This document shows positions 5,662 to 8,172 of a stretch of 27,902 bases of DNA, piece after piece. The notes beneath the pieces were generated by a model, which saw only the letters and a program-made list of their open reading frames with translations, ran no database searches and was not told where the DNA came from. The DNA lies in NCBI GenBank assembly GCA_036244935.1, contig BTTC01000001.1, forward strand, positions 1 to 27,902, given 5' to 3'. The stretch comes from a bacterium. Its GTDB lineage: Bacteria; Nitrospinota_A; UBA7883; JACRGQ01. The position numbers and the translations under genes are program-made. Every line of letters starts with the position of its first letter. Within the stretch, counting starts at the first letter, position 1.

Positions 5662-6225
5662 CTATGAGTTTTTCCGCAGGTCTTTCCTGCCGATTGAATA
5701 CGCATTTGCCTGTCTTTTTGCCTTGACGGGTTTTTCTGCGCGGTAGATCACCGTCTCCTTGTAAAGCAGCGCGCCGTTTTGGTCGATCAAGGTAAAATCA
5801 CTCATCATGTAGTCCGTTTCGATAAACCACCTGCCGGTTATCGTCCGCTTGCCGCTCGACTTTGTAAATTTATACAGGTTGCTGTTAACCATCGTTCCCC
5901 GCGTGTATTCCGCCACCGTTTGCATTTTATCGTTCACAACTACGCTGGCCACGTCAACGCCGGTGCGGACGATTTTCACCGTTACATCCGGCGCTGCTTT
6001 TTTTCTTACAAAATTTTTTATTTCAATCACCACTACCTGATCCTGGCTAAAAACCGACACAAGACTCCTGAATCGGCGCAGTCTTACCGGAGGAGTTGCC
6101 TTGACGTTGTATTCATAGGCGGTCGCTTCAAAAACCCTGTTCTTTCGCGATGCGTCCGCGCCCGGCGACGTTACGCAGGAAAATAATGAAACGAAAACCA
6201 GTAACGACAAAATTCGATAGCGCAT
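5662..6225 (-). CDS. Hypothetical lipoprotein, 187 aa (beta-rich mature part)
   Basis: MRYRILSLLVFVSLFSC carries a lipobox (LFSC). The ATG at 6225 lies inside a MITE terminal repeat; the ORF-track extension to 6342 runs through MITE sequence. Confidence 0.72.
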   Translation of the reverse strand: MRYRILSLLVFVSLFSCVTSPGADASRKNRVFEATAYEYNVKATPPVRLRRFRSLVSVFSQDQVVVIEIKNFVRKKAAPDVTVKIVRTGVDVASVVVNDKMQTVAEYTRGTMVNSNLYKFTKSSGKRTITGRWFIETDYMMSDFTLIDQNGALLYKETVIYRAEKPVKAKRQANAYSIGRKDLRKNS

Positions 6226-6541
6226 CAGTTCGAATCGACACGCCCATGAATAAAGCGGTTTTCGTAATAATCCTCCCTTTGCGGCGAGCACAATGGGAGG
6301 TGGCTGCCGCAGGCAGTCGGGGTTTTCTATAACGCTTGTCATGGTGAGCTGTCATCCTGAGCCCGCCGAAGGATCGAACCACGACAAGCTGAGAGAACGC
6401 CCTTCGACAAGCTCAGGGTGACAACAGGGAACCCCACCCCTTTTGTTCCCCTCCCCGAGAACTTTCGGGGAGGGGATGTTTGCCCTGAGTCAAATTTCGT
6501 TGGCATTAGCAAATTTGGAATTTTCAAACTGATACACTACA
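6216..6541 (+). mobile_element. MITE-like non-autonomous element, copy A (326 bp)
   Basis: Terminal inverted repeats gatagcgcatcagttcgaa (6216-6234) and ttcaaactgatacactaca (6523-6541), 14/19 match. Degenerate 8-bp flanks caaaattc/tggaattc. Internal modules colinear with 17121-17480. Confidence 0.8.
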
Positions 6542-6675
6542 TGGAATTCGGGCAGTTGGTCTTTTTGTTTTCACTATGGATATAATATACTCTACTCCAG
6601 ATGCAGTTGCCGCATAAAGCCTTGCCGACCCTTAACCCGAACGTAAAACAAAACCTTAAATTGTGAGAGTGTTAA

Positions 6676-8172
6676 ATGGTACGTATACGTGTTCTGTCCG
6701 AACCCATTGAGAAAATAAAAACCGAGGCCCTGGCGCTGTTTCTTTTTGAAGACGGCAAACCCGCCGCCGCGCAAAAGGCAATTGATAAAAAGCTGGGCGG
6801 CCGTATTTCCACCCTGATAAGGAAAAAGAAATTCATCCCGAAAAAATCTTCCACGCGCGTAATTGAAACGCTGGGAAGGCTTGAAGCTGATACCGTTTTG
6901 CTGGTGGGTCTGGGCAAGAAAAAAGATTTTACCCTGGAAATCCTGCGCCGGGCATCCGCAAAGGCGGCAACAACGCTGCGCCGCCTGGGTGCGGGTAGTT
7001 TTTCGCTGTCGGTTGAGGAGTTTGCCGATAAAAAACAAAACGAAGAGGCGATGGCGCGGGCCGCGTCGGAAGGTATTATTCTTTCGCTTTACAGGTACAC
7101 CGAGTATCTGGGGAAAAAACCCGACAACGATGCCGGCGATATACGTTACGTGGCGTTTGCCCAAAAAAAATCAGCGGTTTCAAGCGTCAAATCCGCCGTG
7201 GCCGCCGCGCAAAAAATATGCCGTGCGGTATTTCTGGCGCGCGATCTGCAGAACCATCCGGCTAATAAAGCCACACCTTCTTTCATTGCGGAAAAGGCAA
7301 GGAGTATCTGCAGGGAAGTCGGTATGCGCTGCCGCGTCTTGAACAAAAACGAGATAGAACGATTGAAGATGGGCGCTTTCCTTTCCGTCGCGCAAGGCAG
7401 CGCGCAGCCTCCGAAGTTCATAGTCATGGAACACATGAAAGGCAAAAAAAACGAAAAACCGGTCGTGTTCGTGGGCAAGGGGCTGACGTTCGACAGCGGC
7501 GGCATATCCATAAAACCTTCGCAGAACATGGATGAGATGAAGTTCGATATGAGCGGCGCGGCGACGGTGATCGGCGCCATGTACGCCATAGGGCTTTTGA
7601 AGCTGAAAAAAAACGTGGTCGGTCTCGTTGCCGCCACGGAGAACATGCCCGGCGGAAAAGCTGTAAAACCGGGCGACATCGTGCGCGCCATGTCCGGCAA
7701 AACGATTGAAGTTCTGAATACGGACGCGGAGGGACGGCTTGTGCTTGCAGACGCGCTTCACTACGCAAAAAAATACAAGCCGTCGGTGGTAATCGATCTG
7801 GCGACCCTGACCGGGTCGTGCCTGGTTGCGCTGGGTACATTTGCCAGCGGGCTTTTAGGCAACGATCAAAAGCTGATGGACACTTTGCAAAAGGCGGGCG
7901 AGCGCACGGGCGAACGGTGCTGGCCGCTGCCGCTGTGGGATGAATACGGCGAATTGATTAAAAGCAAGGTGGCCGATCTTAAAAACATCGGCGGGCGCTA
8001 TGGAGGTACCATAACGGCGGCGGCGTTCCTCAAGGAATTCACGGACTACCCGTGGGCTCATCTCGACATCGCGGGGACGGCGTTTTCCCCAAAACCGCAG
8101 TCGTCTTACGTGCCTGCCGGGGGCGCGGGTTTCGGTGTACGGCAGCTTGTCGATTTTTTGATGCATCGATAA
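6676..8172 (+). CDS. pepA: Leucyl aminopeptidase (M17 family)
   Basis: GKGLTFDSGG, MKFDMSGAA, NTDAEGRL, DLATLTG and WAHLDIAGT motifs. Confidence 0.97.
   Translation: MVRIRVLSEPIEKIKTEALALFLFEDGKPAAAQKAIDKKLGGRISTLIRKKKFIPKKSSTRVIETLGRLEADTVLLVGLGKKKDFTLEILRRASAKAATTLRRLGAGSFSLSVEEFADKKQNEEAMARAASEGIILSLYRYTEYLGKKPDNDAGDIRYVAFAQKKSAVSSVKSAVAAAQKICRAVFLARDLQNHPANKATPSFIAEKARSICREVGMRCRVLNKNEIERLKMGAFLSVAQGSAQPPKFIVMEHMKGKKNEKPVVFVGKGLTFDSGGISIKPSQNMDEMKFDMSGAATVIGAMYAIGLLKLKKNVVGLVAATENMPGGKAVKPGDIVRAMSGKTIEVLNTDAEGRLVLADALHYAKKYKPSVVIDLATLTGSCLVALGTFASGLLGNDQKLMDTLQKAGERTGERCWPLPLWDEYGELIKSKVADLKNIGGRYGGTITAAAFLKEFTDYPWAHLDIAGTAFSPKPQSSYVPAGGAGFGVRQLVDFLMHR

Follow-up and report, generated by a model that had tools for sequence, protein, structure and literature searches.

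The Correia elements (CREE) of Neisseria are MITEs bounded by TIRs and are co-transcribed with neighbouring genes. Their paired TIRs form a long, processable RNA stem and their ends affect expression; TA duplication, documented outward promoters and cleavage by RNase III are further properties of these elements. The MITE family described here differs from them in its target duplications, which are 8 bp long rather than TA. Other bacterial repeats, including RUP, BOX, BRE and the MITEs of Anabaena, often form in-frame fusions with ORFs, at the 5' or the 3' end, and for the 5' fusions (RUP, BOX and BRE) a function is usually unproven (PMC3184786). [quoted passage not shown]

The locus analyzed here belongs to this known kind of case, in which a repeat is fused to the 5' end of a gene. 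As with RUP and BOX of Streptococcus pneumoniae and BRE of Bordetella, a repeat that is non-autonomous extends over the beginning of a chromosomal ORF and gives its first codons. Unlike in those cases, the split sequence encodes a signal peptide, and the merits of the case are that 12 syntenic orthologues allow the start preceding the insertion to be reconstructed and that the present start codon lies within the TIR itself. REP2 is likewise a dispersed repeat that furnishes an initiation ATG and a 5' UTR; however, REP2 is without TIRs, brings along a promoter and a ribosome binding site and serves 14 co-regulated genes, whereas neither of these signals was detected for the MITE described here, and of its 31 ends with an ATG only the present one heads a gene. 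The palindromic elements of Rickettsia and the cyanobacterial MITEs (Nezha and the Anabaena MITE-ORF fusions) are similarly tolerated in, or fused to, coding sequences. In most of those cases the repeat lies in frame inside the coding sequence or extends its 3' end, and the host start codon is kept; at the present locus, the host start has been severed and another has taken its place.

The window is the whole stretch of 27,902 nt that was analyzed, which is contig C1 of a 2.0-Mb MAG comprising 355 contigs and 91% complete. The locus was present in only one run, a DNA run labelled as a hydrothermal vent metagenome, at a depth of about 5x; a look for RNA runs gave none. Its features are collected in Table 1.

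Table 1. Coordinates of the features at the locus, in positions of the window
Feature	Position	Strand or sequence	Description
Barrel-protein gene, present form	5662..6225	-	ORF of 187 codons with translation MRYRILSLLVFVSLFSC..., ending at 5662; ATG within the MITE end (CAT 6223-6225 on the plus strand)
Target duplication, gene-side copy	6208..6215	+ strand CAAAATTC	Now encodes part of R-I-L
MITE, 326 bp, without transposase	6216..6541		Modular: left arm, GC-rich hairpin cassettes, right arm
Proximal (left-arm) 19-bp TIR	6216..6234	+	GA-TAGCGCATCAGTTCGAA; holds the outward ATG 6225-6223 (minus strand)
Distal (right-arm) TIR	6523..6541	-	ATA at the variable codon; holds the TGA that ends the stub
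Target duplication, distal copy	6542..6549	+ strand TGGAATTC	5/8 identical to the gene-side copy
Severed ancestral 5' end	6524..6574	-	GTG 6574, 16 codons (VKTKRPTARIPCSVSV); stop TGA 6526-6524 within the distal TIR
Conserved gene-specific box AGTATATTATA	6581..6591	-	6 nt upstream of GTG 6574
MITE-derived in-frame extension	6226..6342	-	Open to ATG 6342; 226-aa form
pepA, M17 leucyl aminopeptidase	6676..8172	+	Divergent syntenic anchor; Pfam PF00883, PF02789

The gene that carries the MITE end encodes a member of a family of about 170-190 aa, which always adjoins pepA in this bacterial family and for which no Pfam match was found. An AF2 (AlphaFold) model built with 18 sequences (pLDDT 85) consists of a signal helix, a 10-stranded antiparallel barrel and a C-terminal basic helix. 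In Foldseek searches, the closest solved folds were nitrobindin (E = 7.5e-5) and other FABP/lipocalin-like barrels, with TM scores of 0.48-0.57, and the closest AFDB cluster was an uncharacterised one named 'Lipoprotein', with TM scores of 0.71-0.75. The protein is predicted to be an exported, nitrobindin/lipocalin-like barrel of 10 strands. An earlier note on this DNA had described the reconstructed N-terminus as a textbook lipoprotein signal peptide. The sequence L-F-S-C17 is indeed present in the window protein and fits the loose PROSITE-type lipobox rule, but the description was overstated: 11 of the 12 orthologues have no Cys in the signal region and carry AxA-type sites (AYA, AHA, ALA, SHA and ASA), a possible lipobox (G-L-A-C) occurs in orthologue L036 only, and the signal peptidase I site A-D-A/S of the window protein aligns with the cleavage position of the orthologues. 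Because most orthologues have AxA sites for signal peptidase I, lipidation of the barrel protein is doubtful.

The element at 6216-6541 is a MITE of a family that is expanded in this MAG. We obtained 77 BLAST matches in the MAG with the 361-bp stretch, and the exact TIR pattern occurred 48 times, compared with zero for the reversed-pattern control. In 13 genomes of the same bacterial family, the exact pattern was found 0-2 times each (reversed-pattern controls, 0), which indicates that the MITE family has expanded in this lineage. A census with the 17-nt TIR core, allowing at most 3 mismatches, gave 84 ends in the MAG, and 22 copies with ends in inverted pairs, 65-478 bp apart, were used to derive the family rule: a TIR of 19 bp (GGTAGTGYATCAGTTTGAA) and a target duplication of 8 bp, perfect in at least 10 of the 22 pairs (for example GAATATCA, TGATGTTC, AAAATTTC and CATTTTTC). 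In the present copy, the distal TIR core (6539-6523, TAGTGTATCAGTTTGAA) matches the family consensus at 17/17 positions, and the proximal core (6218-6234, read outside-in; Table 1) is complementary to it at 14/17. On the minus strand, the 8-bp flanks read GAATTCCA upstream and GAATTTTG downstream of the element, and the outer dinucleotides of its TIRs are TG and GA, compared with GG in the family; the cluster of differences adjoins a distal TIR that is otherwise perfect. The longest ORFs inside the MITE are at most 62 aa and consist of repeat sequence. Its right arm is 95% identical to copy C133, so that the insertion may be recent, and this identity weakens the idea of a great age drawn from the decayed flanks.

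We found no autonomous partner with matching TIRs in the MAG in searches for ISL3, IS1595 and IS256 elements. No IS1595 transposase was found in the MAG, and the IS256-type fragments in it had no matching TIR nearby. The sole ISL3 copy (C291:42-1422), which seems intact, with a 368-aa open frame and 32-nt inverted ends (GGCTCATCGTGG...), was rejected as the partner, its ends being unrelated to the TIR of the MITE. Because the MAG is 91% complete, the partner may simply be unassembled.

Several further observations were made on the family. Perfect or near-perfect solo ends of the form GGTAGTGTATCAGTT(T/C)GAA are present in three other genera of the bacterial family (G007:C71:33706, G007:C132:1282, G001:C25:14317, G001:C38:3150 and G005:C24:2448); in these three related genomes, the interiors are unrelated and no transposase was found nearby. 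The TIR thus predates the burst in this MAG. At least eight MITE copies (C43:7432, C49:8228, C296:703, C92:6404, C184:1855, C50:4501, C34:5473 and C45:1513) share one target sequence that is itself repeated, aggtct-GAAYATCA-agacat (or acgtat). In this target the 8-bp duplication is flanked by short inverted bases (GTCT/AGAC), so that the loop of another dispersed repeat is a recurrent target of the MITE. In two further places (C85:132-1385 and C168:1472-2748), an end of the right-arm type is faced, at a distance of about 1.25 kb, by one of the left-arm type, and the ORFs between them, each of about 250 aa, differ, one being Cys-rich (CPRCG...); the interiors are mutually unrelated, and these pairs may be cargo-carrying or composite forms.

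We then considered the state of the gene before the insertion. When the element and one 8-bp flank were removed, the stub beginning at GTG 6574 and the barrel-protein gene joined in frame (MKTKRPTARILSLL... / MKTKRPTARILSLLVFVSLFSC...), and the frame was kept whichever of the two flanks was taken out. For comparison, we used 12 syntenic orthologues (loci L032-L043) from other genera of the same bacterial family, with identities of 36-48%. In all 12 relatives pepA is divergent from the orthologous gene. The start-to-start gap between the two genes was 34-101 nt according to scripted upstream-ORF calls and lay at 73-101 nt in 9 of the 12, the short gaps of 34, 40 and 44 nt stemming from over-extended calls of the upstream ORF. 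In the window, the start of pepA at 6676 is 101 nt from GTG 6574 and 450 nt from ATG 6225.

A box of the form AGTATAnTATA is found 10-21 nt ahead of the chosen start in 10 of the 12 orthologues, and two orthologues have an in-frame ATG only 5-6 nt after the box. The box, which reads AGTATA(G/T)TATA, recurs in different genera in the interval that separates pepA from the barrel-protein gene. Because AGTATAnTATA occurs just twice in the whole MAG, we regarded the box as gene-specific and rejected it as a general promoter motif. The conserved box is probably the -10 region of the ancestral promoter or an operator; a start 5-6 nt past the box would suit the -10 region of an mRNA whose leader is absent or very short, or again an operator.

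Taken with the synteny of pepA, the upstream box and the in-frame restoration, the insertion of the MITE at about codons 9-11 of the region coding for the putative signal peptide is well supported, and a simple insertion appears to be the only reasonable reading of these three lines of evidence. In this respect the earlier note was borne out. Its boundaries for the MITE (6216-6541, with an 8-bp flank) agree with the family rule, and we reproduced its observations that GTG 6574 joins the gene in frame when the element is removed together with one flank, that the stub meets a stop inside the MITE, and that the two TIRs differ in sequence, with an ATG in the proximal one; the comparison of orthologues likewise supports its claim that the MITE disrupted the 5' coding end of the gene. 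No genome of the same genus was found among the GTDB relatives, in which the best orthologue is 48% identical, and a search of 5.8 billion proteins gave no sequence above 55% identity except for the window's own protein. With pepA, a scan of genome contigs gave matches of at most 50% identity, led by one from Latescibacterota, and was uninformative as to taxonomy. Exact-pattern scans of metagenome contigs gave zero matches both for the predicted empty site and for the 5' end of the gene, and no element-skipping joint occurred in the Logan contigs, which stop short of the gene-side junction. We infer the empty state solely from the synteny of the orthologues.

We next analyzed the origin of ATG 6225. 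The earlier note had proposed that a TIR of the ATA-CAC form was mutated after the insertion (ATA>ATG and CAC>CGC), so that its ATG-CGC form supplied a start and a basic n-region, and had named ATGCGC as a common TIR variant elsewhere among the findings that would refute it. In favour of such a repair under selection, T predominates at position 6 in the left-arm TIRs of the family (left arms tatacgcacatg... or tcgacacgc...), with about 15 copies exactly at consensus by hand tally, and C at this position is a minority state of about 6/40 left arms (also by hand tally). Right arms (aattccaaa...) mostly have C, giving ATG (about 20 copies, hand tally), and the present copy thus has the minority state on both arms; the combination of C in the left arm with T in the right was found in this copy alone. 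In addition, the three differences between its TIRs are all transitions. However, across the 84 ends the outward codon at the variable TIR position was ATG in 31, ATA in 25 and another codon in 28, and ATG is accordingly the commonest codon of the family. The ATG-CGC form is not unique either: TAGCGCATCAG recurs at C5:19246 and C81:2749, the form occurs as CAGCGCATCAG at C169:2203, and none of these three ends heads a gene. By the test that the earlier note had set for itself, the idea of a mutated TIR fails.

The relatives of the proximal arm also argue against a repair mutation. As query for them we took the part of the left arm beyond the TIR (63 nt), which kept the TIR state out of the search, and the two best matches were C263 (TIR TAGCGCAC, GTG-CGC outward), followed by C168 (TAGTGCAT). 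The former shares TAGCGCA and has C at positions 4 and 6, and the latter has C at position 6; a pairwise alignment showed that C263 and the present copy have both a tcgacacgc left arm and a CCCCTCCCCGAGAA hairpin module in common. Both C states appear to have been inherited from a source copy, which is the simplest explanation of the states of C263 and C168. A TTC for TTT further in is private to the copy in the window and leaves the start codon unaffected. As far as can be read from sequence, these comparisons show ATG 6225 to be a standing variant of the TIR that was carried in by the element and not a repair mutation, and we regard the model of mutation after insertion as unlikely.

We next asked whether the gene is still made. 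We consider it fairly probable that the locus reflects a MITE insertion that brought in an inherited in-frame ATG, with the gene perhaps still being made. On this account, the MITE landed in about codons 9-11 and cut the gene off from GTG 6574 and the upstream box, and the element-borne ATG variant happened to fall in frame at 6225. Transcripts from the native promoter would run through the element, which is terminator-free in this orientation, and translation from the ATG of the TIR would yield MRY+RILSLL..., a signal peptide resembling those of the orthologues. The predicted N-terminus combines R2 and R4 with a hydrophobic core of 14 residues and the site ADA/S, and its MRYR beginning is similar to the signal peptides of orthologues, MDRRIPPLLF and MIVRITALV being examples. 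Rescue of the gene through ATG 6225 itself is plausible, with the chances about evenly balanced.

A different reading is that the gene was recently knocked out, its ORF remaining open for lack of time and the in-frame ATG being a coincidence. The 95% identity of the right arm to C133 is in line with such a recent event. In neutral simulation at 2-5% divergence, moreover, ORFs as long as this one were still open in 34-63% of cases, and the intactness of the barrel-protein ORF consequently proves little. An in-frame ATG-bearing end is expected by chance with a frequency of about 0.37 x 1/3 = 0.12, or about 0.1. Neither a promoter nor an SD motif was found at ATG 6225, a scan in and near the element having given no sigma-70-like promoter; the missing SD motif is not disqualifying, because SD motifs are weak genome-wide (about 20% of putative starts compared with 8% for the background). 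In the predicted fold of the read-through RNA (-155 kcal/mol, z = -6.9), the TIRs pair with each other and ATG 6225 is buried inside the stem. On the other hand, the conserved residues of the intact ORF are fully kept, with 26 of 30 near-invariant columns retained compared with 24-27 in the orthologues (leave-one-out), and the differences at 3/8 positions of the flanks, together with the non-consensus outer bases of the TIRs, hint at some age. We found no terminator-like site on the minus (sense) strand inside the element; the single one detected is a plus-strand site and thus antisense to the barrel-protein gene. The end at 6225 is the only one of the 31 ATG-bearing ends that leads into a real gene. 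We judge a recent knock-out to be rather less than probable. Much less probable is a start at ATG 6342 within the MITE, which would give a 226-aa protein with a 39-residue element-derived leader before the hydrophobic segment. The frame is open from this codon, AGGA is located 12-13 nt upstream of it, and the database protein P0002 has 226 aa, as called by gene finders; however, the signal peptide would become internal, the N-termini of the orthologues align with the MRY start and not with the extension, and the extension is pure repeat sequence, all of which make this start very unlikely. An assembly artefact, in which the contig joins two different MITE copies at an unreal junction, would be in keeping with the depth of about 5x and with the high copy number of the interior. 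The Logan contigs, which are independent and derive from the sole run containing the locus, leave 6188-6263 uncovered, that is, the gene-side junction including the ATG (a 574-nt unitig ends at 6187), so that the base calls in this interval rest on the MAG assembly alone. Nevertheless, the unique flanks of the element are syntenic neighbours in 12 of the 12 orthologues and rejoin in frame, and the distal junction is matched without mismatch by a 3-kb Logan contig; we consider an artefact highly improbable.

We also considered a broader reading of the favoured account of insertion with an inherited ATG, namely that the TIR serves as a portable start codon. More than one-third of the ends carry an outward ATG with an open MHY or MRY frame, so that insertions into the first codons of genes might be tolerable. 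The same reading includes cleavage of the stem by an RNase III-like activity, which would leave a short-leader or leaderless mRNA starting near the ATG. Both the portable start and the cleavage are speculative, and we would give either of them little weight. The three TIR differences, being T/C transitions, form G.U wobbles in the minus-strand sense RNA and C.A mismatches in the plus-strand RNA, and such sense-only wobbles fit a stem selected on the sense strand. Typical members of the family show the reverse, the strand that allows wobble pairs being the other one with respect to the arms.

These results carry a warning for annotation: the recorded 226-aa protein starts in repeat DNA, and the true ancestral start lies 350 nt upstream of ATG 6225. 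As it stands, the case illustrates a known phenomenon rather than a new mechanism. If the gene is still expressed, the end of a mobile element has replaced both the start codon and the n-region of a signal peptide in a way that can be cleanly reconstructed, and standing variation among TIRs, rather than later repair, can pre-adapt an element for insertions that are tolerated at the 5' coding end of a gene.
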